Shown: piece by piece, positions 19,053-37,180 of the stretch
Numbering within the stretch: position 1 is the first letter of the stretch
Layout: the number at the start of each line of letters is the position of its first letter
From: Escherichia coli
GTDB lineage: Bacteria; Pseudomonadota; Gammaproteobacteria; Enterobacterales; Enterobacteriaceae
DNA: 64,000 nt
NCBI RefSeq assembly: GCF_050920415.1
Contig: NZ_CP169309.1
Reading direction: 5' to 3' (one strand)
Translations under genes and position numbers: made by a program
Notes under the pieces: model-generated
What the model was told of the DNA's origin: nothing
Databases searched by the model: none
Seen by the model: only the letters and a program-made list of their open reading frames with translations

Positions 19053-20138
19053 GTGAAGATACTTGTTACTGGTGGCGCAGGATTTATTGGTTCTGCTGTT
19101 GTTCGTCACATAATAAATAATACGCAAGATAGTGTTGTTAATGTCGATAAATTAACCTACGCCGGAAATCTGGAATCGCTCGCTGAAATTTCTGATTCTG
19201 AACGTTATTCATTTGAGCATGCAGATATCTGTGATGCCGCAGCGATGGCTCGTATTTTTTCACAACACCAGCCAGATGCGGTAATGCACCTGGCGGCTGA
19301 GAGCCACGTTGACCGCTCAATAACTGGTCCGGCGGCATTCATTGAAACTAATATTGTAGGTACTTACGTACTTTTAGAAGCAGCGCGCAATTATTGGTCT
19401 GGTCTGGATGATGAAAAGAAAAAAAACTTTCGCTTTCATCATATTTCTACTGATGAAGTGTATGGTGACTTACCCCATCCGGATGAAGTAAATAGCAATG
19501 AAACATTGCCGTTATTTACGGAAACGACAGCATACGCGCCAAGTAGTCCATATTCTGCTTCTAAAGCGTCAAGCGATCATTTGGTTCGCGCATGGAAACG
19601 TACTTATGGTTTACCGACAATCGTGACTAATTGCTCGAACAACTATGGCCCTTATCATTTCCCGGAAAAGCTTATTCCACTGGTTATTCTTAATGCACTG
19701 GAAGGTAAGGCATTACCTATTTATGGCAAAGGAGATCAAATTCGCGACTGGTTGTATGTAGAGGATCATGCTCGTGCGCTATATACCGTAGTTACTGAAG
19801 GTAAAGCGGGTGAAACCTATAACATTGGCGGACACAACGAAAAGAAAAACATCGATGTTGTGCTGACTATTTGTGATTTGTTGGATGAGATAGTCCCGAA
19901 AGAGAAATCTTATCGTGAGCAAATTACTTATGTTGCTGATCGCCCAGGACACGATCGCCGTTATGCGATTGATGCTGAGAAGATTAGTCGCGAATTGGGT
20001 TGGAAACCACAGGAAACGTTTGAGAGCGGGATTCGGAAGACAGTAGAATGGTACCTGTCCAATACAAAATGGGTTGATAATGTGAAAAGTGGCGCCTATC
20101 AATCGTGGATTGAACAAAACTATGAGGGACGCCAGTAA
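19053..20138 (+). CDS. rmlB: dTDP-glucose 4,6-dehydratase
   Basis: 361-aa [23 protein letters not shown]...; SDR family with YxxxK; first gene after galF. Confidence 0.93.
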
Positions 20139-21037
20139 TGAATATCCTCCTATTCGGCAAAACAGGGCAGGTAGGTTGGGAACTACAGCGTGCTCTGGCA
20201 CCTCTGGGTAATTTGATTGCTCTTGATGTTCACTCCACTGATTATTGTGGTGATTTTAGTAATCCTGAAGGTGTAGCTGAAACCGTAAGAAGCATTCGGC
20301 CTGATATTATTGTCAACGCAGCCGCTCACACCGCAGTTGACAAAGCAGAATCAGAACCGGAGTTTGCACAATTACTTAACGCGACAAGTGTCGAAGCGAT
20401 TGCGAAAGCAGCCAATGAAGTCGGCTCCTGGGTTATTCACTACTCTACTGACTACGTATTTCCGGGAACCGGTGAAATACCATGGCAGGAGGCGGATGCA
20501 ACCGCACCGCTAAATGTTTACGGTGAAACCAAGTTAGCCGGAGAAAAAGCATTACAAGAGCATTGTGTGAAGCACCTTATTTTCCGGACCAGCTGGGTCT
20601 ATGCAGGTAAAGGAAATAACTTCGCCAAAACGATGTTACGTCTGGCAAAAGAGCGTGAAGAATTGGCCGTTATTAACGATCAGTTTGGTGCGCCAACAGG
20701 TGCTGAGCTGCTGGCTGATTGTACAGCACATGCCATTCGTGTCGCACTGAATAAACCAGAAGTCGCAGGCTTGTACCATTTGGTAGCCAGTGGTACCACA
20801 ACCTGGCACGATTATGCTGCGCTGGTTTTTGAAGAGGCGCGCAAAGCAGGCATTCCCCTCGCACTCAACAAACTCAATGCGGTACCAACAACAGCCTATC
20901 CTACACCAGCTCGTCGTCCACATAACTCTCGCCTTAATACAGAAAAATTTCAGCAGAACTTTGCGCTTGTCTTGCCTGACTGGCAGGTTGGCGTGAAACG
21001 CATGCTCAACGAATTATTTACGACTACAGCAATTTAA
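20138..21037 (+). CDS. rmlD: dTDP-4-dehydrorhamnose reductase
   Basis: 299-aa [23 protein letters not shown]...; start overlaps the rmlB stop. Confidence 0.92.
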   Translation: MNILLFGKTGQVGWELQRALAPLGNLIALDVHSTDYCGDFSNPEGVAETVRSIRPDIIVNAAAHTAVDKAESEPEFAQLLNATSVEAIAKAANEVGSWVIHYSTDYVFPGTGEIPWQEADATAPLNVYGETKLAGEKALQEHCVKHLIFRTSWVYAGKGNNFAKTMLRLAKEREELAVINDQFGAPTGAELLADCTAHAIRVALNKPEVAGLYHLVASGTTTWHDYAALVFEEARKAGIPLALNKLNAVPTTAYPTPARRPHNSRLNTEKFQQNFALVLPDWQVGVKRMLNELFTTTAI

Positions 21038-21094
21038 TAGTTTTTGCATCTTGTTCGTGATGGTGGAACAAGATGAATTAAAAGGAATGATGAA

Positions 21095-21970
21095 ATGAAA
21101 ACGCGTAAAGGTATTATTTTAGCAGGTGGTTCTGGTACTCGTCTTTATCCTGTGACTATGGCAGTCAGTAAACAGCTGTTACCTATTTATGATAAACCGA
21201 TGATCTATTACCCGCTCTCTACACTGATGTTGGCGGGTATTCGCGATATTCTAATTATAAGTACGCCACAGGATACTCCTCGTTTTCAACAACTGCTGGG
21301 TGACGGGAGTCAGTGGGGCCTTAATCTTCAGTACAAAGTGCAACCGAGCCCAGATGGTCTTGCGCAGGCATTTATCATCGGTAAAGAGTTTATCGGTAGT
21401 GATGATTGTGCTCTGGTTCTCGGTGATAATATCTTCTACGGTCACGATCTGCCGAAGTTAATGGATGCCGCTGTTAACAAAGAAAGTGGTGCAACGGTAT
21501 TTGCCTATCACGTTAATGATCCTGAACGCTATGGTGTCGTTGAGTTTGACAAAAACGGTACGGCAATTAGCCTGGAAGAAAAACCGCTACAGCCAAAAAG
21601 TAATTATGCGGTAACTGGGCTTTATTTCTATGATAACGACGTTGTAGAAATGGCAAAAAATCTTAAGCCATCTGCCCGAGGTGAACTGGAAATTACCGAT
21701 ATTAATCGTATCTATATGGAACAGGGGCGTTTGTCTGTCGCTATGATGGGGCGTGGTTATGCATGGCTGGATACAGGGACGCATCAAAGCCTTATTGAAG
21801 CAAGTAACTTCATTGCCACCATTGAAGAGCGTCAGGGATTAAAAGTATCTTGCCCGGAAGAGATTGCTTATCGTAAAGGGTTTATTGATGCTGAGCAGGT
21901 AAAAGTATTAGCCGAACCGCTTATCAAGAATCAATATGGTCAATATTTGCTGAAAATGATCAGCGAATAG
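21095..21970 (+). CDS. rmlA: Glucose-1-phosphate thymidylyltransferase
   Basis: 291-aa [24 protein letters not shown]... Confidence 0.93.
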
Positions 21971-21984
21971 TATGTGGGAACTCA

Positions 21985-22398
21985 ATGATGGATATTAAAT
22001 TAATCTCTTTGCAAAAACATGGGGATGAGCGTGGTGCATTAATTGCTCTTGAAGAGCAACGAAATATACCTTTCGAAGTCAAAAGAATATATTACATACT
22101 CGAGACTCTTAAGGGAGTAAGACGCGGATTTCATGCGCACAAGGTTACTCGTCAGTTAGCTATTGTAGTCAAGGGAGCTTGTAAATTTCATCTGGATAAT
22201 GGTAAAGAAACAAAGCAGGTGGAACTTAATGATCCAACAATTGCGTTGCTGATAGAACCCTATATATGGCATGAAATGTATGATTTTAGTGATGATTGTG
22301 TGCTGCTTGTAATTGCGGATGATTTCTATAAAGAGTCTGATTATATACGCAATTATGATGATTTTATTAGAAGAGTAAATTCAATTGAGAATTCATAA
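21985..22398 (+). CDS. fdtA: dTDP-4-keto-6-deoxyglucose 3,4-ketoisomerase (FdtA/QdtA-type cupin)
   Basis: 137-aa ORF; small cupin of the WxcM C-terminal/FdtA type (...RGFHAHK...WHEMYDFS...); sits between rmlA and an acetyltransferase/aminotransferase pair. Galacto- versus gluco-configured product cannot be told by eye. Confidence 0.7.
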
Positions 22399-22852
22399 GC
22401 TAAGTGACGTCCAGACAACATCAATTGGTGATGGAACAACTATCTGGCAGTTTGTTGTAATACTAAAAGGTGCTGTAATTGGTAATAATTGCAACATCTG
22501 TGCAAATACCTTGATTGAAAATAACGTTGTAATTGGTAACAATGTCACAGTCAAAAGCGGTGTGTATATTTGGGATGGCGTTAAAATAGAGGATAATGTT
22601 TTTATTGGTCCTTGTGTAGCATTTACAAATGATAAGTATCCTCGCTCTAAAGTCTATCCTGATGAATTTTTGCACACAATAATACGCAAAGGAGCATCAA
22701 TAGGTGCTAATGCAACCATCCTGCCAGGAATTGAAATTGGTGAAAAAGCAATCGTTGGTGCGGGGAGTGTCGTAACCAAAAATGTACCGCCATGCGCAAT
22801 AGTAGTAGGTAATCCAGCTCGATTTATTAAATGGGTAGAGGATAATGAATAA
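22385..22852 (+). CDS. fdtC: dTDP-3-amino-3,6-dideoxyhexose N-acetyltransferase (hexapeptide-repeat, FdtC-type)
   Basis: 155-aa ORF with left-handed beta-helix repeats ([23 protein letters not shown]...); probable TTG start at 22385 overlapping the fdtA 3' end, start uncertain. Confidence 0.7.
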
Positions 22853-23951
22853 AATTGATTTTTTAGATCTTTTTGCAATTAACCAGCGACAGCACAAAGA
22901 ATTAGTCTCTGCGTTTAGTAGGGTGCTAGATTCTGGTTGGTATATCATGGGCGAAGAACTTGAGCAGTTCGAGAAAGAGTTCGCAGAATACTGTGGAGTT
23001 AAGTATTGCATTGGTGTAGCAAATGGCCTTGATGCGTTGATACTAGTATTGAGGGCATGGAAAGAACTCGGCTATCTAGAAGACGGTGACGAGGTATTAG
23101 TACCGGCAAATACATATATTGCTTCTATTCTTGCTATAACAGAGAACAAACTTGTTCCTGTTCTTGTTGAACCAGATATAGAAACTTATAATATTAATCC
23201 TGCTTTAATTGAAAATTACATTACGGAAAAAACTAAAGCAATATTACCGGTTCACTTATATGGTCTATTGTGCAATATGCCAGAAATTAGTGCAATCGCA
23301 AGAAAATATAATCTGTTGATTCTTGAAGATTGTGCACAAGCACATGGTGCAATACGTGATGGTCGCAAAGCTGGAGCTTGGGGGGATGCTGCAGGATTTA
23401 GTTTTTATCCAGGAAAAAACCTTGGAGCTTTGGGGGATGCGGGAGCTGTTACTACAAATAATGCAGAATTATCCTCAACTATAAAAGCTTTGCGAAATTA
23501 TGGGTCACATAAGAAATATGAAAATATTTATCAGGGATTGAATAGTCGATTGGATGAACTGCAAGCAGCCTTATTGCGTGTAAAAATCCATACATTACCG
23601 GAAGATACTGCGATTCGGCAAAGGATTGCTGAAAAATATATTCGTGAAATAAAAAACCCTGCGATTACGTTACCAGTGTACGAAGGCCAAGGTGCGCACG
23701 TTTGGCATTTATTTGTAGTAAGAATCGCTAATCGTGAAAAATTCCAGTCATACTTATCAGAGAAGGGTATCCAAACCTTAATTCACTATCCATTACCACC
23801 CCATAAGCAGCAAGCATATCAAAATATGTCTAGTCTTAGCCTTCCAATTACTGAGCAAATTCATGATGAAGTCATTTCTTTACCTATAAGTCCGGTAATG
23901 AGTGAAGATGATGTCAATTATGTAATCAAAGTGGTCAATGATTACAAGTAA
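22845..23951 (+). CDS. fdtB: dTDP-3-keto-6-deoxyhexose 3-aminotransferase (DegT/DnrJ/EryC1 family, PLP-dependent)
   Basis: 368-aa ORF of DegT/ArnB aminotransferase type; context with fdtA/fdtC. Confidence 0.78.
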
Positions 23952-25213
23952 TGAAAAAATTTCTTCAGGTAACTATATTATCCGCTATCTATACATTCAT
24001 TAAAATGATTGCGGGTTTTATCATCGGTAAGGTAGTAGCAATTTATACAGGGCCATCAGGGGTAGCAATGCTTGGCCAAGTGCAAAGTTTAATCACAATA
24101 GTTGCAGGTACTACTTCTGCACCTGTAAGCACCGGTCTTGTTCGATATACTGCGGAAAATTGGCAAGAAGGACAGGAAGCATGCGCGCCATGGTGGCGCG
24201 CATGCTTAAGGGTTACTCTGTTTTTATTCTTGCTTATTATTCCCGTTGTTATTTTATTGTCGAAAAATATTAGCGAGTTACTTTTTAGCGATGGACAATA
24301 CACATGGTTAATCATTTTCGCATGTTGTATATTGCCATTCTCCATTTTAAATACATTGATCGCTTCAGTTTTAAATGGTCAACAATTCTATAAGCAATAT
24401 ATATTGGTTGGGATGTTTTCTGTATTCATTTCTACTATGTTTATGATTTTGTTGATTGTAGCTTATAATCTTAAAGGTGCATTGATTGCCACGGCTATAA
24501 ATAGTGCTATTGCTGGTCTTGTATTAGTTTTATTTTGTCTCAATAAATCTTGGTTTAGATTTAAATATTGGTGGGGTAAAACGGATAAAGACAAAATTAT
24601 AAAAATTATTCATTATACTCTGATGGCTTTGGTTTCTGTTATCTCCATGCCTACAGCATTGATGTGTATTAGAAAAATATTGATTGCTAAAACTGGTTGG
24701 GAGGATGCAGGGCAATGGCAGGCCGTATGGAAGATATCTGAGGTCTATCTTGGTGTTGTGACAATTGCTTTGTCAACATATTTCTTACCAAGATTGACAA
24801 TTATAAAAACAAGTTTCCTTATAAAAAAAGAGGTAAATAGTACTATATTATACATAGTATCTATTACTTCATTCATGGCGTTGAGTATCTATTTATTCCG
24901 CGATTTGGTAATAACAGTTTTATTTACTGAACAGTTTCGCTCAGCTCGTGAATTATTTTTGTTACAACTCGTAGGGGATGTAATAAAAATTGCTGGTTTT
25001 CTTTATGCATACCCTCTTCAAAGTCAGGGGCATACTAAACTATTCATCAGTTCAGAAGTGATTTTTTCTATGCTCTTTATCGTTACCACCTATATTTTTG
25101 TTGTAAATTATGGAGTACATGGTGCTAACATAAGTTATGTCATTACATATAGTTTATATTTTGTGTTTGCATTTGTGTTTACTAATTTTATTAATGTCAG
25201 AAGAATTAATTAA
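23951..25213 (+). CDS. wzx: O-antigen flippase Wzx
   Basis: 420-aa, about 12-TM, AT-rich membrane protein immediately after the sugar-nucleotide genes. Confidence 0.8.
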   Translation: MKKFLQVTILSAIYTFIKMIAGFIIGKVVAIYTGPSGVAMLGQVQSLITIVAGTTSAPVSTGLVRYTAENWQEGQEACAPWWRACLRVTLFLFLLIIPVVILLSKNISELLFSDGQYTWLIIFACCILPFSILNTLIASVLNGQQFYKQYILVGMFSVFISTMFMILLIVAYNLKGALIATAINSAIAGLVLVLFCLNKSWFRFKYWWGKTDKDKIIKIIHYTLMALVSVISMPTALMCIRKILIAKTGWEDAGQWQAVWKISEVYLGVVTIALSTYFLPRLTIIKTSFLIKKEVNSTILYIVSITSFMALSIYLFRDLVITVLFTEQFRSARELFLLQLVGDVIKIAGFLYAYPLQSQGHTKLFISSEVIFSMLFIVTTYIFVVNYGVHGANISYVITYSLYFVFAFVFTNFINVRRIN

Positions 25214-25222
25214 AAACAGAGG

Positions 25223-26278
25223 TTGAAATTGAAAATAATTATACCTGTCTTAGGATTTGGCAGGGCTGGTGGTGAAAGAGTTCTTTCTAAGCTGGCAACT
25301 GAATTGATGAATTATGGACATGATGTAAGTTTTGTTGTTCCAGATAATAGAACTAATCCATATTATGCTACCACAGCAAAAATCGTCACGAGTAAATCTA
25401 GTCAAAACCGTGTAAAAATATTGAGAATCATTAAAAATTACTATAATCTGTGGCGTAAATGCATAGAATTAAATCCTGATGCTGTAGTTGCTAGTTTTCA
25501 TTTGACTGCCTATCTTGTCGCATTATTACCAATCACCCGTCGTAAGAAATATTATTATATTCAGGCGTATGAAGTTAATTTTTTTGATAATATAATATGG
25601 AAATTAATAGCGGGTTTAACATATTATTTACCGCTTAAAAAAATACTAAATAGTCCTAATTTGCTTCCTCATAAACATGATGATTTTATAGGAGTAGTTC
25701 CTGCAGGAGTAGATTTAAACGTTTTCTATCCGAAACCATCAAATAGGTTATTAAATGGTCACACATCAATAGGGATTATTGGTAGAAAAGAGAAGCACAA
25801 AGGAACTAGCGAAATTATTTCAGTATTGTGTTCACTGGAAAATAAAGTTGGAATTATAATTAATATTGCGATCTATCTTGAAGAAGTTGATAAGGAGCGT
25901 TTAATTGCTGCCGGGTTTCAGGTTAATTTTTTTCCGATTACTTCTGATTTAGAATTGGCATCTTTTTATCGAAGCAATGACATCATGATTGCAGCTGGGT
26001 TAATTGAAGATGGCGCTTTCCATTATCCTTGTGCTGAATCAATGGCTTGTGGTTGTCTTGTTATTTCAAATTATGCGCCACTTACTGAAACTAACAGTGT
26101 ACTTAAATTAGTCAAGTTTGATGCTTGCAAACTTGGTAAAGCAATTAATCTTTGTCTCAATCTTGACCTAGAAGAAAAAAGCAAAGAAATCCAATCTAAT
26201 ATTTCTGTGTTGAATAAATATGACTGGAAAATTGTTGGTGAAACTTTCAATAGTTTATTGTTAGATGCAAATAAATAG
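25223..26278 (+). CDS. O-antigen glycosyltransferase (GT1/GT4-like)
   Basis: About 350-aa ORF with non-ATG start (TTG at 25223 or 25229; AGAGG RBS at 25217-25221 favours 25229); N-terminus KIIIPVLGFGRAGGERV... typical of GT4-like transferases. Confidence 0.7.
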   Translation: MKLKIIIPVLGFGRAGGERVLSKLATELMNYGHDVSFVVPDNRTNPYYATTAKIVTSKSSQNRVKILRIIKNYYNLWRKCIELNPDAVVASFHLTAYLVALLPITRRKKYYYIQAYEVNFFDNIIWKLIAGLTYYLPLKKILNSPNLLPHKHDDFIGVVPAGVDLNVFYPKPSNRLLNGHTSIGIIGRKEKHKGTSEIISVLCSLENKVGIIINIAIYLEEVDKERLIAAGFQVNFFPITSDLELASFYRSNDIMIAAGLIEDGAFHYPCAESMACGCLVISNYAPLTETNSVLKLVKFDACKLGKAINLCLNLDLEEKSKEIQSNISVLNKYDWKIVGETFNSLLLDANK

Positions 26279-26298
26279 TATACGTTGATGGGGAAAAT

Positions 26299-26856
26299 AT
26301 GAATATTGTTAAAACTGATATTCCAGATCTGATCGTTCTTGAACCAAAAGTGTTTAGTGATGAACGCGGCTTTTTTATGGAGAGTTATAATCAGATTGAA
26401 TTTGAGAAGACAATAGGAAGGCACGTAAATTTTGTTCAGGATAATCATTCAAAATCTAGTAAAGGCGTACTACGTGGGTTACATTATCAATTAGCACCGT
26501 ATGCACAGGCTAAATTAGTTCGATGTGTTGTAGGTCAGGTATTTGATGTTGCTGTTGATCTTAGAAAAAATTCACCAACGTTCAAAAAATGGTTTGGAAT
26601 AACCCTTTCCGCAGAAAATAAACGACAATTATGGATACCTGAAGGATTTGCTCATGGTTTCTTGGTGACCAGTGATGAAGCTGAGTTCATTTATAAAACA
26701 ACGAACTACTATGCTCCTGGTCATCAGCAAGCAATTATTTACAATGATCCTATTTTAAACATCGATTGGCCTTTCTGCAGTAGTGCTCTGTCATTATCGC
26801 AAAAAGATCAAGAAGCAAAATTATTTTCAGAATTATTGGACAGTGAACTGTTCTAA
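26299..26856 (+). CDS. rmlC: dTDP-4-dehydrorhamnose 3,5-epimerase
   Basis: 185-aa ORF MNIVKTDIPDLIVLEPKVFSDERGFFMESYN...; canonical RmlC cupin; separated from rmlBDA. Confidence 0.92.
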   Translation: MNIVKTDIPDLIVLEPKVFSDERGFFMESYNQIEFEKTIGRHVNFVQDNHSKSSKGVLRGLHYQLAPYAQAKLVRCVVGQVFDVAVDLRKNSPTFKKWFGITLSAENKRQLWIPEGFAHGFLVTSDEAEFIYKTTNYYAPGHQQAIIYNDPILNIDWPFCSSALSLSQKDQEAKLFSELLDSELF

Positions 26857-26923
26857 TAAAGTGTGCCACCTTATCCGTCTGAAGGATAGGTGGTTGCTTA
26901 TATTTTTTGAGTATGTTTGTATA

Positions 26924-27886
26924 ATGACAGAAAATAGTCCGAAATATAAACACGATAAAAGCTTAATAAGTTTTATCTACTTATTTTTTATATTTACACT
27001 TATTGTAGGCTTCATTATCGCAAATACCCAGTTTTTGGGGCGAAGTAGAGACTATGATAATTATATACAGATCTTTTCTGGTGAAGAAGGGGAGGGGGTT
27101 CTTGAATTATTTTATCGCGGATTGATGTTAATAACGACCAGCTATGAAATTATCATTTTTATAATTTTAACATGTTCTTTTTTTATAAAGGCAAGGTTTC
27201 TTGCTAACTATTCGCGTAATTTTTCAGGCTTGACCTTATTCTTTGTTTATTATGCAAGCGTTGCACTTTGGGTTTTAGATTATACTCAATTCAGAAATGG
27301 TCTATGTATTTCCATTTTAATGTTTTCCGTATACTATTTATTTATAAATAAACCGACTTATTTTTATTTCTCGCTATTATGTGCAATTGCAACTCATTGG
27401 TCTGCTTTGCCTTTTTTGCTTTTATATCCTTTTGTCTATTCAAAAAAAATAAGACACCTTGGTTATTTTTGTTTCAGTATTCTTGTTTTGATTGCGATCT
27501 CAGGAGAAGGAAAAGAGATCATTTCTTTTATAAGAAATTTTGGAGTGGGACAAAAAATAGGAAACGAAGCTGGTGTAAATTTAATAAATTCATTATCCCT
27601 TACCGCTATTTTCTGGTTTGTTATTAGTTACATATCAAGCATTGGAAATGAAAGGAGAAATTTAAGACTTTTCTTTTGTTATGGTGTCATGCAATACGTG
27701 ACTTTTAGCCTTTTCTCTCTACCTGTTATGGCTTTCCGTATTTTGGAAATGTATTTTTTCCTTATGTTAACCATTGGGGTGTTTATTAAGCAAAAAAAGA
27801 ATTATTATTTTGTTTTTTGCAAAGTGTTAATTTTATTGTATCTAACATACTATTATCATATGGTTTTTGGAGTGATTAATGTGTAA
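26924..27886 (+). CDS. wzy: O-antigen polymerase Wzy
   Basis: Listed ORF starts at 26783; ATG at 26924 (MTENSPKYKHDKSLISFIYLFF...) gives about 320 aa; very AT-rich, multi-TM, with a large predicted loop. Confidence 0.7.
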   Translation: MTENSPKYKHDKSLISFIYLFFIFTLIVGFIIANTQFLGRSRDYDNYIQIFSGEEGEGVLELFYRGLMLITTSYEIIIFIILTCSFFIKARFLANYSRNFSGLTLFFVYYASVALWVLDYTQFRNGLCISILMFSVYYLFINKPTYFYFSLLCAIATHWSALPFLLLYPFVYSKKIRHLGYFCFSILVLIAISGEGKEIISFIRNFGVGQKIGNEAGVNLINSLSLTAIFWFVISYISSIGNERRNLRLFFCYGVMQYVTFSLFSLPVMAFRILEMYFFLMLTIGVFIKQKKNYYFVFCKVLILLYLTYYYHMVFGVINV

Positions 27887-28766
27887 GGCTAAGGTGTTGG
27901 CTATAATTGTTACTTACAACCCGGAAATTATTCGTTTGACGGAATGTATTAACTCTTTAGCCCCACAAGTTGAGAGAATAATTCTTGTAGATAATGGCTC
28001 AAATAATAGTCATTTGATAAAAAATATCATTATTAATAACCTTGAAATTATTTTGCTTTCGGAAAACAAAGGCATTGCATTTGCTCAGAACCATTGTGTT
28101 AAGAAGGGTCTGGAAGCAAAAGAGTTTGACTATTTATTTTTCTCAGATCAGGATACTTGCTTTCCTAGCGATGTTATTGAAAAACTTAAGAGTACATTTA
28201 CGAAAAATAATAAAAAAGGTAAAAATGTTGCTTGTGCTTCTCCTTTTTTTAAAGACCATCGTTCAAATTATATGCATCCGTCAGTCAGCCTAAATATTTT
28301 TACGAGTACAAAAGTTATATGTAGTGAAGTAGACGATGATCTTTATCCCTCGCATGTTATTGCTTCTGGGATGTTAATGTCTCGCGAGGCATGGCGCGTC
28401 GTCGGACCATTTTGTGAAAAACTCTTTATAGACTGGGTTGATACAGAATGGTGTTGGCGTGCATTAGCTAATAGTATGATTATTGTTCAGACACCATCAG
28501 TCATCATTTCTCATGAACTTGGGTATGGGCAGAAAATTTTTGCTGGTCGATCTGTTACAATACATAATTCTTTCAGAAATTTTTATAAAATACGTAATGC
28601 AATATACTTAATGCTGCATTCAAATTATAGCTTCAAGTATCGTTATCATGCTTTTTTTCATGCGACAAAGAATATTGTATTTGAAATTTTATATTCGAAA
28701 GAAAAATTAAATTCACTGAAGGTTTGTTTTAAAGCTGTACGTGATGGTATGTTCAATAATTTTTAA
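27879..28766 (+). CDS. O-antigen glycosyltransferase, GT2 family (probable rhamnosyltransferase)
   Basis: 295-aa ORF; N-terminus LAIIVTYNPE...VDNGSNNS and a DxD-like region (FFSDQDT) typical of GT2. Confidence 0.72.
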   Translation: MCKAKVLAIIVTYNPEIIRLTECINSLAPQVERIILVDNGSNNSHLIKNIIINNLEIILLSENKGIAFAQNHCVKKGLEAKEFDYLFFSDQDTCFPSDVIEKLKSTFTKNNKKGKNVACASPFFKDHRSNYMHPSVSLNIFTSTKVICSEVDDDLYPSHVIASGMLMSREAWRVVGPFCEKLFIDWVDTEWCWRALANSMIIVQTPSVIISHELGYGQKIFAGRSVTIHNSFRNFYKIRNAIYLMLHSNYSFKYRYHAFFHATKNIVFEILYSKEKLNSLKVCFKAVRDGMFNNF

Positions 28767-28796
28767 TACAAAAATAGTTAGGCTCAAGGTGTTTAA

Positions 28797-29873
28797 ATGG
28801 AAGAAAATAATATGAAGACGGTCGCTGTAGTTGGCACAGTGGGTGTTCCTGCTTGTTATGGTGGGTTTGAATCACTTGTTCAGAATCTAATTGATTATCA
28901 ATCTGATGGTATACAATATCAGATATTTTGCTCTTCAAAAAAATATAATAAAAAATTAAAAAATTATAAAAATGCAGAATTAATCTATTTGCCGATAAAT
29001 GCCAATGGCGTCTCTAGCATAATTTATGACATTATGTGTTTAATTATTTGTTTATTCAAAAGGCCAGATGTTGTTTTAATATTGGGGGTATCTGGTTGTT
29101 TATTTCTACCAATTTATAAACTATTTTCAAAATCAAAGATCATTGTCAACATCGATGGGCTTGAATGGCGTAGAAATAAATGGGGAACGTTTGCTAAGAA
29201 ATTTCTCAAAATATCTGAGGCGATATCTATTAGAATAGCTGATATTATCATTTCAGATAATCAAGCAATAGCTGATTATGTGGAAAATAAGTACAATAAA
29301 AAAAGCGTAGTTATAGCTTATGGGGGAGATCATGCTACTAATCTTAGTACACCGATAGACGATGATCAAAAAAAAGATGGTTATTATTTGGGGCTTTGTA
29401 GGATAGAGCCTGAGAATAATATAGAAATGATTTTGAATGCCTTCATTAATACAGATAAAAAAATTAAATTTATGGGTAATTGGGATAATAGCGAGTATGG
29501 GCGCCAGCTAAAAAAATATTATTCAAACTATCCAAATATCACACTACTAGAACCTAACTATAATATCGAAGAACTTTATAAACTAAGAAAAAATTGCCTT
29601 GCATACATTCATGGACACTCGGCTGGTGGAACAAACCCTTCTTTAGTTGAAGCGATGCATTTTAATATTCCTATTTTTGCTTTCGATTGTGACTTTAATC
29701 GTTACACAACTAATAATTTAGCTCATTACTTTAATGATTCTGAACAACTGACCTCATTAGCAGACAGTTTGTCTTTTGGAAATCTTAAATGTCAAGTATT
29801 AGATTTAAAAAAATATGCTGAAGATATGTATAACTGGAGGCATATAGCTGCTATGTATGAATCTATTTATTAA
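28797..29873 (+). CDS. O-antigen glycosyltransferase (GT1-like)
   Basis: 358-aa ORF (alternative start MKTVAVVG at 28812); GT1-like C-terminal motifs; last gene of the O-unit block. Confidence 0.68.
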   Translation: MEENNMKTVAVVGTVGVPACYGGFESLVQNLIDYQSDGIQYQIFCSSKKYNKKLKNYKNAELIYLPINANGVSSIIYDIMCLIICLFKRPDVVLILGVSGCLFLPIYKLFSKSKIIVNIDGLEWRRNKWGTFAKKFLKISEAISIRIADIIISDNQAIADYVENKYNKKSVVIAYGGDHATNLSTPIDDDQKKDGYYLGLCRIEPENNIEMILNAFINTDKKIKFMGNWDNSEYGRQLKKYYSNYPNITLLEPNYNIEELYKLRKNCLAYIHGHSAGGTNPSLVEAMHFNIPIFAFDCDFNRYTTNNLAHYFNDSEQLTSLADSLSFGNLKCQVLDLKKYAEDMYNWRHIAAMYESIY

Positions 29874-30039
29874 ACGCATTAACAATAATATAATTGACCT
29901 TATATAGCTATCAGAGTAAAAATGTAACGCTGATTTTTTTGTTAAATGATGCGCATTATATATTTAATGATTAAAATACTCTTGATCAAATAAAACTATT
30001 TAATTAATAATGTAAAATTTCATTATGCTATTTAAGATG

Positions 30040-30108
30040 TGAAAAATAACTTAAATAAATGATGGGATATATTTATATTATCCCGGTTATAGACAAGCCC
30101 AGGGAAAG
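30040..30108 (+). repeat. Degenerate duplicate of the 5' end of the H-repeat (ISAs1) transposase gene
   Basis: 30057-30108 (aaatgatgggatatatttatattatcccggttatagacaagcccagggaaag) is about 85% identical to 30257-30308 inside the transposase ORF; the ATG equivalent is mutated. Confidence 0.6.
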
Positions 30109-30244
30109 ATCATCAGAAGTACACTTTTTGTACTAAATAATTCGCATTTTATGTTTAAAAATATGAGATATTCCTCATTACCTGAAGCTGTTTTTTATTG
30201 CTTATACATGATCAAATACTCCTTACATAATTAAGGAGAACAAA

Positions 30245-31381
30245 ATGGAACTTAAAAAATTGATGGAACATATTTCTATTATCCCCGATTACAGACAAGC
30301 CTGGAAAGTGGAACATAAATTATCGGATATTCTACTGTTGACTATTTGTGCCGTCATTTCTGGTGCAGAAGGCTGGGAAGATATAGAGGATTTTGGAGAA
30401 ACACATCTCGATTTTTTGAAGCAATATGGTGATTTTGAAAATGGTATTCCTGTTCACGATACCATTGCCAGAGTTGTATCCTGTATCAGTCCTGCAAAAT
30501 TTCACGAGTGCTTTATTAACTGGATGCGAGATTGCCATACTTCAGATGATAAAGACGTCATCGCAATTGATGGAAAAACACTCCGGCATTCTTATGACAA
30601 GAGTCGCCGTAAGGGAGCGATTCATGTCATTAGTGCGTTCTCAACAATGCACAGTCTGGTCATCGGACAGATCAAGACGGATGAGAAATCCAATGAGATT
30701 ACAGCCATCCCTGAACTTCTTAACATGTTGGATATTAAAGGGAAAATTATCACAACTGATGCGATGGGTTGCCAGAAAGATATTGCAGAGAAGATACAAA
30801 AACAGGGAGGTGATTATTTATTCGCTGTAAAAGGAAATCAGCGTCGGCTTAATAAAGCCTTTGAAGAAAAATTCCCACTGAAAGAATTAAATAATCCAGA
30901 GCATGACAGTTATGCAATTAGTGAAAAGAGTCACGGCAGAGAAGATATCCGTCTTCATATTGTTTGCGATGACCCTGATGAACTTATTGATTTCACGTTT
31001 GAATGGAAAGGACTGAAAAAATTATGCGTGGCAGTCTCCTTTCGCTCAATAATAGCAGAGCAAAAGAAAGAGCCCGAAATGATGGTCAGATATTATATCA
31101 GTTCTGCTGATTTAACCGCTGAGAAGTTTGCGACAGCGATTTGAAATCACTGGCACGTGGAGAATAAGCTGCACTGGCGTCTGGACGTGGTAATGAATGA
31201 AGACGATTGTAAAATAAGAAGAGGAAATGCAGCAGAATTATTTTCTGGGATACGGCACATTGCTATTAATATTTTGACGAATGATAAGGTATTCAAGACA
31301 GGATTAAGACGTAAGATGCGAAAAGCAGCCATGGACAGAAACTATCTCGCGTCAGTCCTTGCGGGGAGCGGGCTTTACTAG
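30245..31381 (+). mobile_element. ISAs1-family (H-repeat-associated) transposase gene interrupted by a single in-frame TGA (pseudogene)
   Basis: 299-aa ORF (30245-31144) and 74-aa ORF (31157-31381) are in the same frame, separated only by TGA at 31142-31144; the combined about 378-aa product has the ISAs1 motif ...[21 protein letters not shown]... with the stop at a conserved Arg position. Confidence 0.8.
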
Positions 31382-31453
31382 TCCTTCCTCGCTCAGTGAC
31401 AGAATATTGAATGAATAGCATTAAAATTATTAAATAATATGGTTTAATTCGAC

Positions 31454-33081
31454 ATGAACTTTAAGAATATAATTAGAATAATACTACCTTTTTTTATTTT
31501 CTTGAGTATTTTACTTTACTCAGGAAGGGCGGATAGTGTTTTGTTATTTACTATCGAATACACACTTGCAAGTATGGCAATCTTTCTGATAAAAAGAAAG
31601 TTTATAAGCAATATCTTGTGGGGGATTTATCTCTCAATTTTAGGTGTACAGGCAGCATCGCTATTTAGTTCAGGACAATATTTGATGCCTCTTGCCTTGT
31701 CGAATGCTGCAGAAGTTGAATCGCTAGGCATTGGCGAGGTAATCAAGGTTTTTTCTATTTTTATTTTATTTGTTATAGTTTCATTCGTTACGATGCCTTC
31801 TGGTGCTCTAGTCGGCCGTATTAAATATTATAAATTTAATTTTTTCTGTATAGTATTATTGCTTGTGTGTTCTTTCATAAGCACGGGACCGGTATATGCT
31901 TTTTATGAAACAGCAAAATTGTACTATTTACAGCAAACCTTTAAGCCTAGTGAGAAGATCGGTGATGCCGGGAAATCTTTTTTAAAAACAAGTGTTTTTA
32001 TTAACCCTCTACAGAATAACAACAACTTCAAAGGGCGTAATGTTATTGTAATCTTTGCTGAGGGATTTTCATCGGAGATTATTGGTAATTCAAAAATGGC
32101 GCATTTTCCAATTACGCCTAATTTAGATAAGTTATCTACTGAAGCACTAAGTTTTAAAAATTATTATAACCATACAGCAGTAACCTTTCGAGGTTTAAGA
32201 GGCCAGTTAACTTCTGGCTATCAATTTCGTGATGGGTTAACTGATGCTGGTACTGGTATTGCACAATTATCTAACGTAGAAATTAATAATATTTATCTTC
32301 ATCGTCAAACATCTTTGCCGAATATATTGAAAGAGTATGGCTATAAAAGTTATTTTATAGCGTCTACAGAAAAAATAGCCCACTCAACACTATGTTGAAA
32401 ACGCTTAATTTTGATAAAGTTCTTGGTATGGGAGATTTTATTGGTTATCAACGCGACAGAATGACTGATAAGCAAACATTTAATGCACTGCAATATTTTT
32501 TACGTTCTCAAGAAAATAAAAACGAACGCTTTTTTATTGGTGTGTACCCATCTGGTACTCATCATGGTCAAGATAGTCCAAATGAAAAATATTTTGATGG
32601 TAGCAATCCTCTCTACAATAAATTCTATAACTATGATTTTCAGTTGGGGAAGTTTGTTGATTTTTTTCGGCGCAGTTCATTTTATGGCAATACGTTGTTG
32701 ATAATTACATCGGATCATTCTACATTTCCTTCGACAGAATATAAGAAATCATTTAACAGCGATTCTCGTTATTTTGTGGACAAAATACCATTTCTGATCA
32801 TTGGGAAAAATATTACGCCTGAAGTTTTAGATGCAGGAGGTGAAAATTCTTTAAGTTTCGCGCCAACAATATTGCACATGTTAGGGATTCAGTATTCAAT
32901 GAATTATTTTTTGGGGTGTTCTCTTTTTGATAAGACGTGCACATCACCATTCTCACATCTTTCTGCTATTGGTAGTGATTATTTCAATACAGGCAAAGAA
33001 AATCATGTTGAACTAATTCAAAATAATAGTGGTAATGAATTAATAAAATTAGCCGAACGTTTTTATAACATTAGTGGCTAA
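31454..33081 (+). pseudogene. Sulfatase/alkaline-phosphatase-superfamily membrane enzyme (LtaS/phosphoglycerol- or phosphoethanolamine-transferase-like), frameshifted
   Basis: 314-aa ORF (31454-32398) has N-terminal TM helices then a sulfatase-like domain (NVIVIFAEGFSSE...); the domain continues in another frame as a 229-aa ORF (32392-33081; ...LLIITSDHSTFPS...); frame change lies near an A6 run at 32370-32375. Confidence 0.6.
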
Positions 33082-33215
33082 ATATAAAAATGTACAAGTT
33101 ACAAGCAATTTCCTAATTAGGAAATATATGACTGTAAAAGAAGATATAAATTAAGCTATTCTTTATCTTCAATAAGCCGCAACCCCGCGGTGATCACCCC
33201 TGACAGGAGTAAACA

Positions 33216-34622
33216 ATGTCAAAGCAACAGATTGGCGTAGTCGGTATGGCAGTGATGGGGCGCAACCTTGCGCTCAACATCGAAAGCCGTGGTTATACCG
33301 TCTCTATTTTCAACCGTTCCCGTGAGAAGACGGAAGAAGTGATTGCCGAAAATCCAGGCAAAAAACTGGTTCCTTACTATACGGTGAAAGAGTTTGTTGA
33401 ATCTCTGGAAACGCCTCGTCGCATCCTGTTAATGGTGAAAGCAGGTGCAGGCACGGATGCTGCTATTGATTCCCTCAAGCCATACCTCGATAAAGGTGAC
33501 ATCATCATTGATGGTGGTAATACCTTCTTCCAGGACACCATTCGTCGTAACCGTGAGCTTTCTGCCGAAGGCTTTAACTTTATCGGTACCGGTGTCTCCG
33601 GTGGTGAAGAAGGTGCGCTGAAAGGTCCTTCCATTATGCCTGGTGGCCAGAAAGAAGCCTATGAACTGGTTGCACCGATCCTGACCAAAATCGCCGCCGT
33701 TGCTGAAGACGGCGAGCCATGCGTTACCTATATTGGTGCCGATGGTGCTGGCCACTATGTGAAGATGGTTCATAACGGTATTGAATACGGCGATATGCAG
33801 CTGATTGCTGAAGCCTATTCACTGCTTAAAGGTGGCCTGAGCCTCACCAACGAAGAACTGGCTCAGACCTTTACCGAGTGGAATAACGGTGAACTAAGCA
33901 GCTACCTGATCGACATCACCAAAGATATCTTCACCAAAAAAGATGAAGACGGTAACTACCTGGTTGATGTGATTTTGGATGAAGCAGCAAACAAAGGTAC
34001 AGGCAAATGGACCAGCCAGAGTGCGCTAGATCTCGGCGAACCGCTGTCGCTGATTACCGAGTCTGTGTTTGCACGTTATATCTCTTCTCTGAAAGATCAG
34101 CGTGTTGCCGCATCTAAAGTTCTCTCTGGCCCGCAAGGACAGCCAGCAGGCGACAAGGCTGAGTTCATCGAAAAAGTTCGCCGTGCGCTGTATCTTGGCA
34201 AAATCGTTTCTTACGCTCAGGGCTTCTCTCAGCTGCGTGCTGCGTCTGAAGAGTACAACTGGGATCTGAACTACGGCGAAATCGCGAAGATTTTCCGTGC
34301 TGGCTGCATCATTCGTGCGCAGTTCCTGCAGAAAATCACCGATGCTTATGCCGAAAATCCGCAGATCGCTAACCTGTTGCTGGCTCCTTACTTCAAGCAA
34401 ATTGCCGATGACTACCAGCAGGCGCTGCGTGATGTCGTTGCTTATGCAGTACAAAATGGTATCCCGGTTCCGACCTTCGCTGCTGCGGTTGCCTATTATG
34501 ATAGCTACCGTGCCGCTGTTTTGCCTGCGAACCTGATCCAGGCACAGCGTGACTATTTCGGTGCGCATACTTATAAGCGCATTGATAAAGAAGGTGTGTT
34601 CCATACCGAATGGCTGGATTAA
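33216..34622 (+). CDS. gnd: 6-phosphogluconate dehydrogenase, decarboxylating
   Basis: 468-aa [33 protein letters not shown]...; canonical Gnd; 3' flank of the O-antigen locus. Confidence 0.97.
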
Positions 34623-34647
34623 TCTGATTTAACCAACAATAAATTGA

Positions 34648-34679
34648 AGCCCGGCGTGTATTGCGCCGGTTTTTTTTTG
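34648..34679 (+). terminator. Rho-independent terminator downstream of gnd
   Basis: GC-rich hairpin gaagcccggcgtgtattgcgccgg followed by a T9 run. Confidence 0.7.
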
Positions 34680-34859
34680 CCGATTATCTTATAGACTAAA
34701 TTTCACTGCTTAATATTAACTTAATAAATATCAGCTATTCTTATAAAGAAAATCTGAATTGTTTTTTGTTGCGTTGACCATCTGACAACGTAGCGTTAAA
34801 ACTTTTAGCTCTTATCAGGATGCTAAAAACATCATGATTCACAGTTAAGTTAATTCTGA

Positions 34860-36035
<1,176 letters not shown>

Positions 36036-37159: not shown

Positions 37160-37180
37160 TATTATTGTGCATTTAAGAGA

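Follow-up and report, generated by a model that had tools for sequence, protein, structure and literature searches.

Base composition and proposed layered history of the low-GC block in an Escherichia coli O2/O50 O-antigen gene cluster

Between galF and gnd of the E. coli genome studied here lies a block of AT-rich DNA that ends with an H-repeat and a sulfatase-like gene, and it raises the question of what its composition can tell about the origin of its genes. The original prediction, made on the 64-kb stretch of DNA analysed here (the window), placed the AT-rich block at 21985-33100 and read its composition as a sign that all of its genes were co-acquired or shared a similar donor, an interpretation that proved only partly supported. 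The shift is real but textbook, as both the composition phenomenon and the O2 cluster were known before. We regard it as highly probable that the low GC is the standing composition of an O-antigen gene pool circulating in Enterobacterales, not the signature of one recent donor, and that the block has a history of three layers.

Composition steps and gene content

Likelihood-ratio segmentation of the window led to GC change points at 16636, 21921, 33176 and 37079, which delimit five tiers of 54.5, 45.0, 33.6, 45.1 and 55.0% GC. The likelihood ratio was 199 at the left edge of the block and 687 at the right edge, the maximum under the sole null (an iid shuffle of the block itself) being 11.9. 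The predicted borders lie 64 and 75 bp from the change points, and a 500-bp GC profile has the expected steps: near 22.0 kb the GC drops from 40-44% to 29-39%, and at 33.0-33.5 kb it climbs from 34% to 50%. On the left, GC goes down in two stages, and the edge of the block is the second of them; the 33.6% inside the block agrees with the 30-35% expected, but the adjoining flanks have about 45% instead of about 50%. Specifically, rmlB, rmlD and rmlA, which had been called GC-balanced, are intermediate (42.8, 47.8 and 43.0% GC; GC3 35-40%), and the other flanking genes range from 43.3% (ugd), 45.6% (wzz) and 49.8% (gnd) to 48-54% (wca) and 52-56% (his). Codons inside the block are AT-biased as predicted (GC 30-39% and GC3 22-36% per gene), and the CAI, computed with the Sharp and Li weights, drops there to 0.16-0.24, whereas rmlBDA have 0.30-0.33, the his genes 0.41-0.43 and gnd 0.50. 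The block does extend past the last glycosyltransferase (GT) gene, but it is not uniform: fdtA, fdtC and fdtB (21921-24220) have 37.7% GC, the following segment (24221-30282) 31.2% and the sulfatase-like gene wekS (31403-33175) 31.8%, and the H-repeat, an ISAs1 element, forms an island of 41.1% (30283-31402). The features of the locus are:

16636-21920, plus strand: left intermediate-GC zone (45.0%; GC segmentation) with the 3' part of wcaM, galF, the JUMPstart region and rmlB-rmlD-rmlA
18967-18974, plus strand: ops element GGCGGTAG in the galF-rmlB intergenic region (JUMPstart; exact motif search)
19053-21970, plus strand: rmlB (19053-20138), rmlD (20138-21037) and rmlA (21095-21970), dTDP-L-rhamnose pathway (RefSeq annotation)
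21921-33175, plus strand: low-GC block (33.6% GC; maximum-likelihood change points)
21985-23951, plus strand: fdtA (21985/21988-22398), fdtC (22385-22852, TTG start) and fdtB (22845-23951), dTDP-D-Fuc3NAc pathway
23951-25213, plus strand: wzx, O2/O50-family O-unit flippase (RefSeq name; GC 33.3%, GC3 28.5%)
25229-26278, plus strand: GT4-family glycosyltransferase (RefSeq annotation; weak Pfam Glyco_transf_4 match)
26299-26856, plus strand: rmlC, apart from rmlBDA (Pfam dTDP_sugar_isom; GC 35.3%, GC3 25%)
26924-27886, plus strand: wzy, O2/O50-family O-antigen polymerase (RefSeq name; Pfam EpsG)
27879-29873, plus strand: GT2-family glycosyltransferase (27879-28766) and DUF1972/GT1 glycosyltransferase (28797-29873) (Pfam)
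29898-30099, plus strand: degenerate remnant of an older ISAs1 copy, its 5' ~200 bp (direct repeats)
30100-31380, plus strand: ISAs1-family insertion sequence, H-repeat (NCBIfam transpos_ISAs1, E 1e-124, on the intact copy of genome L002)
31454-33081, plus strand: wekS, predicted LtaS/Opt-type membrane phosphotransferase gene (Pfam Sulfatase; split)
33176-37078, plus strand: right intermediate-GC zone (45.1%; segmentation and annotation) with gnd (33216-34622), ugd (34869-36035) and wzzB (36182-37159)

The products of fdtA, fdtC and fdtB match Pfam FdtA, Hexapep and DegT_DnrJ_EryC1, and a Pfam search of the wzx product gave no match. Where Pfam and NCBIfam assigned a family, it is consistent with the name of the gene. 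The ops element of the galF-rmlB region is presumably linked to RfaH. Within the E. coli O2/O50 O-antigen cluster, located between galF and gnd, this block is the O-unit-specific part, with the order fdtA-fdtC-fdtB-wzx-GT4-rmlC-wzy-GT2-DUF1972 GT, followed by an ISAs1 pseudogene and a frameshifted wekS. At 21985-33100 it is 99.1-100% identical to many O2 genomes (the annotation comes from a RefSeq genome identical across these queried positions), and a match spanning at least 80% of it was found in 131 of 5426 E. coli genomes. The O2/O50 references (G1674 GU299792, U18-41; PMC5293828, PMC4732683, PMC7685785) have the same galF-gnd genes in the same order, also with rmlC set apart from rmlBDA (noted in PMC4732683) and wekS as the final gene; unlike them, the window has a stop codon in the ISAs1 transposase and a frameshift in wekS. 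The His-to-Arg change in FdtB reported for O50 was not present relative to three O2 genomes.

Orthologous clusters in other genera and the ISAs1 element

In a Citrobacter cluster (L017), eleven genes are arranged as in the window, rmlA-fdtA-fdtC-fdtB-wzx-GT4-rmlC-wzy-GT2-DUF1972 GT-wekS, and are followed by gnd, without an IS and with a GT-wekS spacer of about 47 bp. Its core proteins are 53-80% identical to those of the window (FdtA 69, FdtC 80 and FdtB 72%) and its WekS 61%, and its GC of 32-40% steps to 52.7% at gnd. Silvania (L008) has wzy-GT2-GT-wekS-gnd at 49-62% identity, and the WekS identity in the two genera (59-61%) lies within the range of the core proteins (49-80%). WekS homologs with 44-46% identity are also encoded by the final gene before gnd in low-GC clusters of two Rahnella species and Pseudenterobacter, and wekS is located directly upstream of gnd in six genera. 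Judged by this synteny, wekS has long belonged to clusters of this type, and to that extent the co-acquisition proposed for the sulfatase-like gene holds. Since the diverged Citrobacter cluster is equally AT-rich, the low GC is far older than any single transfer into E. coli.

Alternatively, selection or local mutation bias (membrane-protein composition, low expression, silencing or antitermination) could hold the GC low, which would then reflect function and not foreign origin. The orthologous clusters of E. coli, Citrobacter and Silvania all have a GC3 of 22-37% despite proteins only 49-80% identical, so that no amelioration is visible; the lowest GC1 values are those of wzx, wzy and the membrane-encoding part of wekS, and PMC3715488 says of the first two genes that their very low GC "needs explanation". 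However, the soluble enzymes FdtA, FdtC and FdtB have an equally low GC3 (26-27%), and amino-acid composition is therefore not the cause. Moreover, rml genes of the same function have 43-48% GC near the flank and 35% (rmlC) inside the block, a gradient which PMC3715488 takes as an argument against a functional need for low GC, and the divergence patterns described below are those of real horizontal exchange of the block. Such a force can coexist with a standing gene-pool composition, but we consider it unlikely to be the explanation in its own right.

Concerning ISAs1, the original prediction included it in the co-acquired set, whereas it is a separate, later insertion: besides being a GC island, it is multicopy in E. 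coli (median of 5 matching places per genome) and has no match in the Citrobacter and Silvania clusters. Its transposase ORF (30245-31381) is a pseudogene, with Arg300 changed to a stop at 31142-31144. The older remnant at its left is defined by direct repeats of the resident element's start, at an offset of about 200 bp, and has an 88% match to positions 12648-12853 of genome L003. O2 lineages A, B and C and the O1-variant cluster share the register of the junction where the ISAs1 3' end meets wekS, and the IS copy beside it is 88-90% identical, the same distance as wekS; contigs of cryptic Escherichia end inside the wekS-adjoining IS end. Terminal inverted repeats and a target duplication could not be defined, so a simple insertion is not proven, and, as no IS-free E. 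coli O2 cluster was found, the pre-insertion state is deduced from the other genera only.

Divergence within E. coli and the proposed history

Lineages were compared through one representative genome each plus summary counts; by its tail allele, the window falls in lineage 'A'. Against L002, an O2 genome of another background, divergence is low from 21728 to 33232 (0.45-0.9%; 3.4% in the 5' part of ISAs1), with flanks differing by 4.6-12.7%, in agreement with the view of the block as a horizontally exchanged, serogroup-specific part. As this tract is continuous, the last exchange between the two backgrounds carried fdtA-wekS whole, ISAs1 included. Divergence change points at 21.73-21.90 kb and 29.8-29.96 kb recurred in 3/3 lineage comparisons, the latter where the conserved O2 core ends with the DUF1972 GT. 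K4 is 0.011, 0.040 and 0.082 in the core as opposed to 0.36-0.40 in wekS (Fisher p 7e-20, 4e-14), and NG86 dS between O2 lineages is 0.046 and 0.097 as opposed to 0.41-0.50; core and tail have separate histories within E. coli, at odds with the single one that co-acquisition would imply. In lineage B the wekS divergence of about 12% runs unbroken into gnd and ugd, and this tail may have travelled with a foreign gnd-ugd segment, with no crossover in ISAs1. The tail of lineage C is 99.8% identical to that of O10, and the ISAs1-wekS module also ends the O10 and O1-variant clusters. Beyond the block, the left zone is a mosaic of 3-17% divergence from other O2 genomes with internal change points (K4 0.17-0.73), and the right zone is also highly divergent and mosaic. 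Pairwise dN/dS of the wekS alleles (0.11-0.24) indicates that the gene remained functional after the IS insertion.

The shared IS-wekS junction at the end of the O2, O10 and O1-variant clusters and the discordant core and tail divergence could also suggest an independent mobile cassette, carried by the IS to gnd-proximal cluster ends with no ancestral tie to the O2 core; opt, a homolog, is carried by a plasmid beside an IS1, and PMC5293828 handles the gene as a separate module. This is quite improbable in view of the Citrobacter and Silvania clusters, where wekS directly follows wzy-GT2-DUF1972 GT without an IS and with core-typical divergence, and of its constant position upstream of gnd across the six genera. 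Within E. coli, wekS was found in 161 genomes, 132 of them with at least 80% of the O2 core, and all 161 matches are chromosomal and single-copy; furthermore, wekS is IS-flanked on one side only and hence has no composite-transposon structure. Least probable of all is that composition records a single event from one low-GC donor for the whole 11 kb, since the continuous tract shared with lineage A, the codon usage of wekS (closest to the core, distance 0.55-0.56) and its colinearity in Citrobacter are opposed by the features of ISAs1 noted above, a wekS dS 5-10x that of the core and a Citrobacter cluster just as AT-rich with proteins 20-47% different. Composition cannot reveal whether the donor was shared, because codon usage is the same in O-specific genes of unrelated serogroups: those of the O10 and O1-variant clusters lie at 0.62-0.86 from the O2 core and, like wekS, within its leave-one-out range (0.52-1.17).

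Under the gene-pool explanation, the first layer would be an old colinear unit, fdtA-fdtC-fdtB-wzx-GT4-rmlC-wzy-GT2-DUF1972 GT-wekS, directly upstream of gnd, represented in full by Citrobacter and in its right half by Silvania. Secondly, a single insertion would have placed ISAs1 in the short spacer that separates wekS from the last GT gene, probably in an Escherichia ancestor prior to the divergence of the present wekS alleles. Thirdly, in the order that we infer, later homologous recombination with crossovers at the rmlA 3' end, around ISAs1 and at the gnd start would have joined one young O2 core (at most 3% diverged) to old ISAs1-wekS alleles, at least three in number and 11-13% diverged, and attached the same module to the ends of O10 and O1-variant cores. 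In the window strain, the latest exchange probably brought the 21.73-33.23 kb piece as one unit, after which the transposase would have acquired its stop codon and wekS its frameshift. An alternative is that the core was swept in beside tails that had been resident for longer; what the data give is decoupling without direction.

The wekS product and comparison with known systems

The loss of one base from an A7 run at 32369 causes the frameshift in wekS and leaves ORFs 31454-32398 and 32428-33081; the L002 allele is intact (542 aa). The closest solved folds to WekS are VP1736 (3LXQ), PbgA (6XLP) and LtaP/LtaS (4UOP, 2W8D, 4UOR, 2W5R), with MCR-1 also among the neighbours and true sulfatases ranking behind the LtaS/PbgA type, and the formylglycine motif C/S-x-P-x-R is absent from WekS. 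The membrane-anchored alkaline-phosphatase-superfamily proteins LtaS, OpgB and PbgA are its fold kin, yet with only 14-20% sequence identity, and its best NCBIfam matches are phosphoglycerol transferases at 30-36 bits, far under the cut-offs of 572-574 bits. WekS has 38% identity over 477 residues (E 1e-89) with Opt (Lpt-O), the plasmid-encoded O-antigen phosphoethanolamine transferase of Shigella flexneri (PMC3458804, PMC3728103). In both proteins a sulfatase-superfamily domain comes after N-terminal membrane segments, and they share an identical NYYNHTAATFRGLRGQLTS block and the ITSDH motif. Both genes are very low in GC (opt 29.3%) and inactivated in nature by single-base deletions; unlike opt, wekS is chromosomal, inside an O-antigen cluster, and encodes 36 more residues. 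We take the O2 main chain to consist of three L-Rha plus GlcNAc, like the Opt substrate. More than one L-Rha in the O2 unit is given in the literature; Opt adds phosphoethanolamine to rhamnose in S. flexneri, and its substrate is described as an O unit with three L-Rha plus GlcNAc (PMC3458804). WekS is most likely, from its relatedness to Opt, a periplasmic phosphotransferase decorating the O antigen, a role weakened by a 2019 review with no mention of phosphoethanolamine on any E. coli O antigen, and none has been reported on O2.

Among mosaic clusters, those of Salmonella enterica show the same GC tiers, and group D2 arose there from D1 and E (PMC3715488; Reeves et al. 2013). As in that species, GC is 28-37% in GT genes, wzx and wzy and intermediate in rml genes, where it increases toward the housekeeping flank, and an H-repeat (ISAs1-family) remnant lies at the junction of segments with different histories. 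In contrast to Salmonella, the IS described here lies between the last GT gene and a modification-type gene and not between two GT/wzy segments, a single IS-gene junction is common to several serogroups, and the gene order before insertion is defined by orthologous, IS-free clusters of other genera. The mosaic O1-variant cluster of E. coli strain A47 has an O10-like second module and, as third and last module, a single gene 91% identical to O2 wekS that was read as "derived from the O2 cluster" (PMC5293828; Delannoy et al. 2017); N18-04097 (L005) has the same layout (rmlBDAC, flippase, wecB, GT genes, ISAs1 remnant, wekS). The wekS alleles of O2-A, O2-B, O2-C/O10 and the O1 variant are up to 13% apart and all equidistant from the Citrobacter and Silvania orthologs, which points to an old allele family and not to a recent loan from O2. 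The three parts of the block, an old core, a later IS and a reshuffled last gene, are separable by comparative evidence only.

Base composition and identity of the low-GC block

In a sliding GC profile, the AT-rich stretch begins near 22 kb and ends abruptly at 33.0-33.5 kb. Likelihood-ratio segmentation was applied to the whole window, with the following outcome.

GC content of the window by segment and of the sub-segments of the low-GC block
1-4192: 48.1% GC
4193-16635: 54.5% GC
16636-21920: 45.0% GC
21921-33175, the low-GC block: 33.6% GC
33176-37078: 45.1% GC
37079-44272: 55.0% GC
44273-63569: 49.1% GC
Sub-segment with fdtA, fdtC and fdtB: 37.7% GC
Sub-segment from wzx to the last glycosyltransferase gene: 31.2% GC
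Sub-segment with the ISAs1 element, 30283-31402: 41.1% GC
Sub-segment with wekS, the last gene: 31.8% GC

The low-GC block is real and far beyond chance, because the likelihood ratio was 199 at the left change point (21921) and 687 at the right one (33176), against a maximum of 11.9 in the sole null, an iid shuffle of the block itself. The original prediction had drawn its limits at 21985 and 33100, only 64 and 75 bp from these change points, and the codon adaptation index that it proposed as a check also drops, being 0.16-0.24 in the block versus 0.30-0.33 in rmlBDA, 0.50 in gnd and 0.41-0.43 in the his genes (approximate values, with Sharp and Li weights). GC3 within the block is 22-36%. Composition and codon usage are atypical relative to the flanks (33.6% vs. 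45-55% GC), as in a genomic island. Flanks of about 50% GC had been expected, whereas the immediate flanks measure about 45%: rmlB, rmlD and rmlA have 42.8, 47.8 and 43.0% GC (GC3 35-40%), ugd 43.3% and wzz 45.6%, so that GC has already stepped down once before the left edge of the block. The block is also less uniform than had been described, as it falls into the four sub-segments listed. The same segmentation picks out two further stretches, one of 34% GC at the window's end (63570-64000) and one of 48% GC that covers wcaC-wcaF (1-4192).

Concerning identity, the block matches two E. coli genomes at 100% and many others at 99.1%, several of them labelled O2, and its wzx and wzy carry the RefSeq names of 'O2/O50 family' flippase and polymerase. 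The core, from fdtA to the DUF1972 glycosyltransferase gene, is 98.3-99.9% identical to 132 genomes, several with an O2 label. The neighbouring genes are wca, galF, rmlBDA, gnd, ugd, wzzB and his; annotation of identical and near-identical genomes places the block between galF and gnd, with the wca genes upstream and ugd-wzz-his downstream. Pfam domains were assigned to FdtA, FdtC (hexapeptide acyltransferase), FdtB (DegT-type aminotransferase), RmlC, Wzy (EpsG-type) and three glycosyltransferases (GT4, GT2 and DUF1972/GT1). Sugar pathways are present for L-Rha (rmlBDAC) and D-Fuc3NAc (fdtA/fdtB/fdtC), and an ops motif lies at 18967, 5' of rmlB. There are three glycosyltransferase genes, a count that PMC7685785 attributes to one enzyme making differing linkages between L-Rha residues. 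On sequence grounds, we classify the block as a Wzx/Wzy-dependent O-antigen cluster of serogroup O2/O50 at the galF-gnd locus. The marker separating O50 from O2 is, as Yang et al. (2018) are quoted in PMC7685785, a His-to-Arg change in FdtB. No His/Arg difference was found between the window and three O2-type genomes; only V294I and L305S were seen. O50 identity was not adopted, and by this comparison the window looks like O2.

The fdtC gene (22385-22852) is an unbroken hexapeptide-acyltransferase ORF of 155 aa with a TTG start, and its Citrobacter counterpart is 157 aa long and 80% identical. In every O2 genome examined, RefSeq breaks fdtC up into two partial pseudogenes, an annotation that probably results from the unusual start codon. 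The left 22 kb of the window differs by 2 bases from strain MFDS1022581; compared position by position, the right half shows 4256 mismatches, probably from an indel offset, and is uninformative. In E. coli N96, whose block is identical, an IS621 sits between wzzB and hisIE (21382-22362 of that locus); the window has none there (wzz end 37159, hisIE start 37345). In E. coli E89, an IS1 occupies the cluster's place between galF and gnd (13288-14130), and just the last 130 bp of a wekS of the window's type are kept (99.2% identical); this strain seems to have arisen from an O2-type strain by deletion.

Relatives in other genera and the ISAs1 element

The last gene of the block (31454-33081) is named wekS in the literature (PMC5293828, PMC4013041). 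Outside Escherichia, the closest WekS proteins are 59-64% identical (Silvania, Citrobacter), followed by a group at 42-50% (Buttiauxella, Rahnella, Enterobacter, Salmonella, Leclercia). A WekS homolog ends a low-GC O-antigen cluster just 5' of gnd in Silvania, two Rahnella species and Pseudenterobacter. Specifically, a Citrobacter locus has the complete order rmlD-rmlA-fdtA-fdtC-fdtB-wzx-GT4-rmlC-wzy-GT2-DUF1972 GT-wekS-gnd, with only about 47 bp from the last glycosyltransferase gene to wekS and without a transposase. Its core proteins, from FdtA to the DUF1972 glycosyltransferase, are 69, 80, 72, 64, 53, 71, 53, 64 and 64% identical to those of the window and its WekS 61%, while its GC content is 32-40% with a step to 52.7% at gnd. 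Silvania carries wzy-GT2-GT-wekS at 49-62% identity. In Silvania confinis (3352-6969), homology to O2 is confined to the right half, wzy-GT2-GT-wekS, and the left half encodes another aminotransferase, a flippase of 508 aa and a protein of 309 aa without a Pfam match; this cluster is therefore itself a mosaic. Within E. coli, a DUF1972 glycosyltransferase of H605 type stands at 88% identity.

The Citrobacter and Silvania proteins are equally distant from all four E. coli wekS alleles (59.4-61.0% identity). Because an IS-free orthologous order exists in other genera and the alleles are equidistant from them, wekS is an ancestral part of clusters of this type, and ISAs1 would have entered the spacer later. 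Outgroups do not reveal which tail allele is 'cognate' to the O2 core, as all four alleles fall within the same narrow range.

The element after the last glycosyltransferase gene encodes an ISAs1-family (H-repeat) transposase (NCBIfam NF033564, E 1e-124 for the intact copy of a lineage A O2 genome, L002). The window copy is 97.5% identical to it in DNA and its transposase is interrupted by a stop at Arg300. An ISAs1-containing query matched 24,933 places in 5339 genomes, with a median of 5 per genome, unlike the core and wekS, which match once per genome. The ends of the element (about 30100 and 31380) were taken as the limits of homology to other copies; a search for terminal inverted repeats and a target-site duplication gave weak AT-rich inverted repeats only. 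About 200 bp of an older ISAs1 5' end are left at 29898-30099 and lineages B and C hold two or three IS copies or remnants, which indicates repeated IS activity at this putative insertion site. A promoter and terminator scan of 29800-33300, bearing on whether the IS uncouples wekS from the operon, returned counts equal to shuffle expectation and was uninformative.

The original prediction had taken the shared low GC as an argument that the H-repeat and the sulfatase-like gene were acquired together with the glycosyltransferase genes or come from a similar donor. That interpretation is half right. For wekS, co-acquisition finds support in the synteny of other genera; for the H-repeat it is wrong, as ISAs1 would be a later insertion and the Citrobacter cluster exists without a transposase. 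Composition itself does not carry the argument. In codon usage, no gene set comes nearer to the O2 core than wekS (distance 0.55-0.56), the unrelated O10 and O1-variant clusters give 0.62-0.86 for their O-specific genes, and the core's own leave-one-out spread (0.52-1.17) contains all of these values; ISAs1 lies at 0.98 and the flanking genes at 1.2-2.0. Since O-specific genes of unrelated serogroups are alike, shared low GC failed to discriminate co-acquisition in this case. All relatives' loci examined show a low-GC cluster against higher-GC flanks, with proteins 49-80% identical, and low GC is a shared property of this O-antigen gene pool. It does not date any one transfer or donor, because it is kept in orthologous clusters whose proteins are half to four-fifths identical. 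No donor of matching composition was identified; the closest named non-Escherichia relatives (Citrobacter, Silvania, Leclercia) are Enterobacterales, and a few metagenome proteins come closer (70-80%). The methodological lesson is that the three layers could be told apart only by synteny in other genera and by synonymous divergence.

Proposed recombination of core and tail in E. coli

The window was compared with three O2 lineages, one locus each, by identity per segment and by change points in SNP density. All three comparisons place the left limit of the conserved core at the 3' end of rmlA (21728-21902) and its right limit shortly after the last glycosyltransferase gene (29793-29964).

Divergence of the window from three O2 lineages
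Lineage A (L002): core 0.45%; wekS under 1% (0.8% over the gene)
Lineage B (L003): core 1.46%; wekS about 12%
Lineage C (L004): core 3.05%; wekS about 13%

For the same genome pairs, rmlBDA and gnd diverge by 4-17% versus 0.45-3% for the core, which is incongruent with its flanks. Selection does not account for the discordance between core and wekS, because the discordance is present at silent sites. Divergence at fourfold-degenerate sites (K4) is 0.011, 0.040 and 0.082 in the core versus 0.36-0.39 in wekS when the A allele is set against B or C (p 7e-20 and 4e-14, Fisher test), and NG86 dS is 0.046 and 0.097 versus 0.41-0.50. In lineage B, represented by the O2:K1:H4 strain APEC E12053, ugd is only 82.8% identical to the window (K4 0.95) and wzz 86.6% (both within 17418-19709 of L003). 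This far exceeds the normal E. coli range and suggests that its gnd-ugd-wzz flank was imported from outside the species. Since the divergence of about 12% continues unbroken into gnd and ugd, the lineage B tail may have travelled along with a foreign gnd-ugd segment.

Matches to wekS occur in 161 genomes and at least 80% of the O2 core in 132. The further carriers include an O10 cluster, with a truncated copy 99.8% identical to the lineage C allele, and a cluster laid out as the published O1-variant A47 mosaic. An ISAs1 sequence lies directly 5' of wekS in every E. coli context. The junction of the IS 3' end with wekS keeps one register across contexts and the adjacent IS copy is 88-90% identical, equal to wekS's own distance; in cryptic Escherichia contigs with a 93% identical WekS, the contig breaks inside that IS end. 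These three features argue that ISAs1-wekS is one old module from a single insertion, later joined to different cores.

The wekS gene is intact (542 aa) in the 99.1% relatives of the block. In the window its frame is split by loss of one A at 32369 from an A7 run (32363-32369), and all wekS disruptions examined are losses of one base from a homopolymer run. Strain SCU-101 carries an independent A7-to-A6 change (1 substitution from L002 vs. 12 for the window allele), TUM13773 C4-to-C3 and T7-to-T6 changes and MS 110-3 an A6-to-A5 change. They could reflect recurrent slippage or decay, or long-read assembly error. Between alleles dN/dS is 0.11-0.24, and because the alleles diverged under purifying selection, wekS stayed in use after the ISAs1 insertion.

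The most likely history is as follows. An old O2-like unit from fdtA to wekS stood beside gnd, and a single ISAs1 insertion between the last glycosyltransferase gene and wekS would have occurred in an Escherichia ancestor. The ISAs1-wekS alleles then diverged under purifying selection. Homologous recombination, crossing over in rmlA, around ISAs1 and where gnd begins, would have left one young O2 core on several old tails and placed such tails behind other cores. Relative to L002, the last exchange carried 21728-33232 in one piece, after which transposase and wekS were inactivated in the window's lineage. The old unit, the allele divergence and the last exchange rest directly on sequence comparison; we infer the order of events and the role of ISAs1 as crossover site.

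Three or more wekS alleles, differing by as much as 13%, exist among O2 genomes, which touches on typing. The published 'O2-specific' reverse primer ECO2-R is sited in wekS (PMC4013041), at 32929-32948 in the window, 15477 in the lineage B and C loci and 14427 in the O10 cluster. It has 0 mismatches to the B and C alleles and to the truncated wekS of O10, 1 to the O1-variant allele and 4 to the A-type allele of the window. Because of this pattern, the assay may miss A-lineage O2 strains and cross-react with O10. We regard the primer mismatch, the multiple tail alleles and the link of WekS with Opt described below as modest by-products.

WekS and comparison with known systems

WekS has several hydrophobic N-terminal segments (within residues 2-151) followed by a PF00884 domain (Pfam, residues 195-479). 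Its AlphaFold (AF2) model (pTM 0.82) shows helices to about residue 162 and then an alpha/beta domain. By sequence, the PDB offered no more than an uncharacterised protein of Vibrio and weak matches to sulfatases. The fold search was more informative, with VP1736, PbgA, LtaP/LtaS and MCR-1 closest and true sulfatases behind. The C/S-x-P-x-R formylglycine motif of true sulfatases was not found in WekS by motif search. Six residues are invariant in 28 homologs (E203, T241, T244, H370, D421 and H422) and are candidates for the metal-binding and Thr-nucleophile residues of an LtaS-type active site.

In a translated plasmid search, WekS was 38% identical (E 9e-75) to the sole enzyme-like gene of S. 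flexneri pSFxv_2 (6850 bp). That gene is opt (PMC3728103, PMC3458804), encoding the Shigella O-antigen phosphoethanolamine transferase, and the opt paper's remark on E. coli relatives is limited to 'sulfatase proteins (31-38% identity)'. On the plasmid, opt (2851-4371) has 29.3% GC and a GC3 of 23.7% within a stretch of 42.7% GC, and adjoins an IS1 transposase gene. WekS is a sulfatase-superfamily membrane protein of the Opt/LtaS phosphotransferase family and not a glycosyltransferase, as its gene is termed in PMC4013041.

Given the homology with Opt, a candidate Opt-like decoration of the rhamnose-rich O2 unit, absent from published structures per the 2019 review on E. coli O antigens, is a reasonable hypothesis; the text of that review makes no mention of ethanolamine phosphate. 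We consider a fuller version improbable as a whole: WekS would be the chromosomal counterpart of Opt inside an O-antigen cluster and, when intact, would decorate rhamnose residues in the O antigens of O2, O10 and the O1 variant with phosphoethanolamine or a similar phospho-substituent, which the published structures lack, and its gene would ride on an ISAs1-wekS module recombining between serogroups and repeatedly switched off by homopolymer frameshifts. If true, genomes typed 'O2' would differ antigenically, with subtypes set by the wekS allele (A, B or C) and by whether it is intact or broken. An active WekS would mean that O2 and related serogroups may bear an unreported O-antigen decoration, relevant to serotyping and to glycoconjugate vaccines directed at extraintestinal and avian pathogenic O2 strains.

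Compared with Shigella flexneri Opt, WekS shares 38% identity over 477 residues (pairwise BLASTP, E 1e-89) and an identical NYYNHTAATFRGLRGQLTS Thr block, whereas opt is plasmid-borne and wekS lies in an O-antigen cluster. The composition shift itself is an accurate sighting of a known, textbook phenomenon, and both the O2/O50 cluster and the modular wekS are already published. In Salmonella, O-antigen clusters show GC tiers, rml genes of intermediate composition and an H-repeat remnant at the junction of segments with different history (PMC3715488), and all three features are common to those clusters and the one described here.
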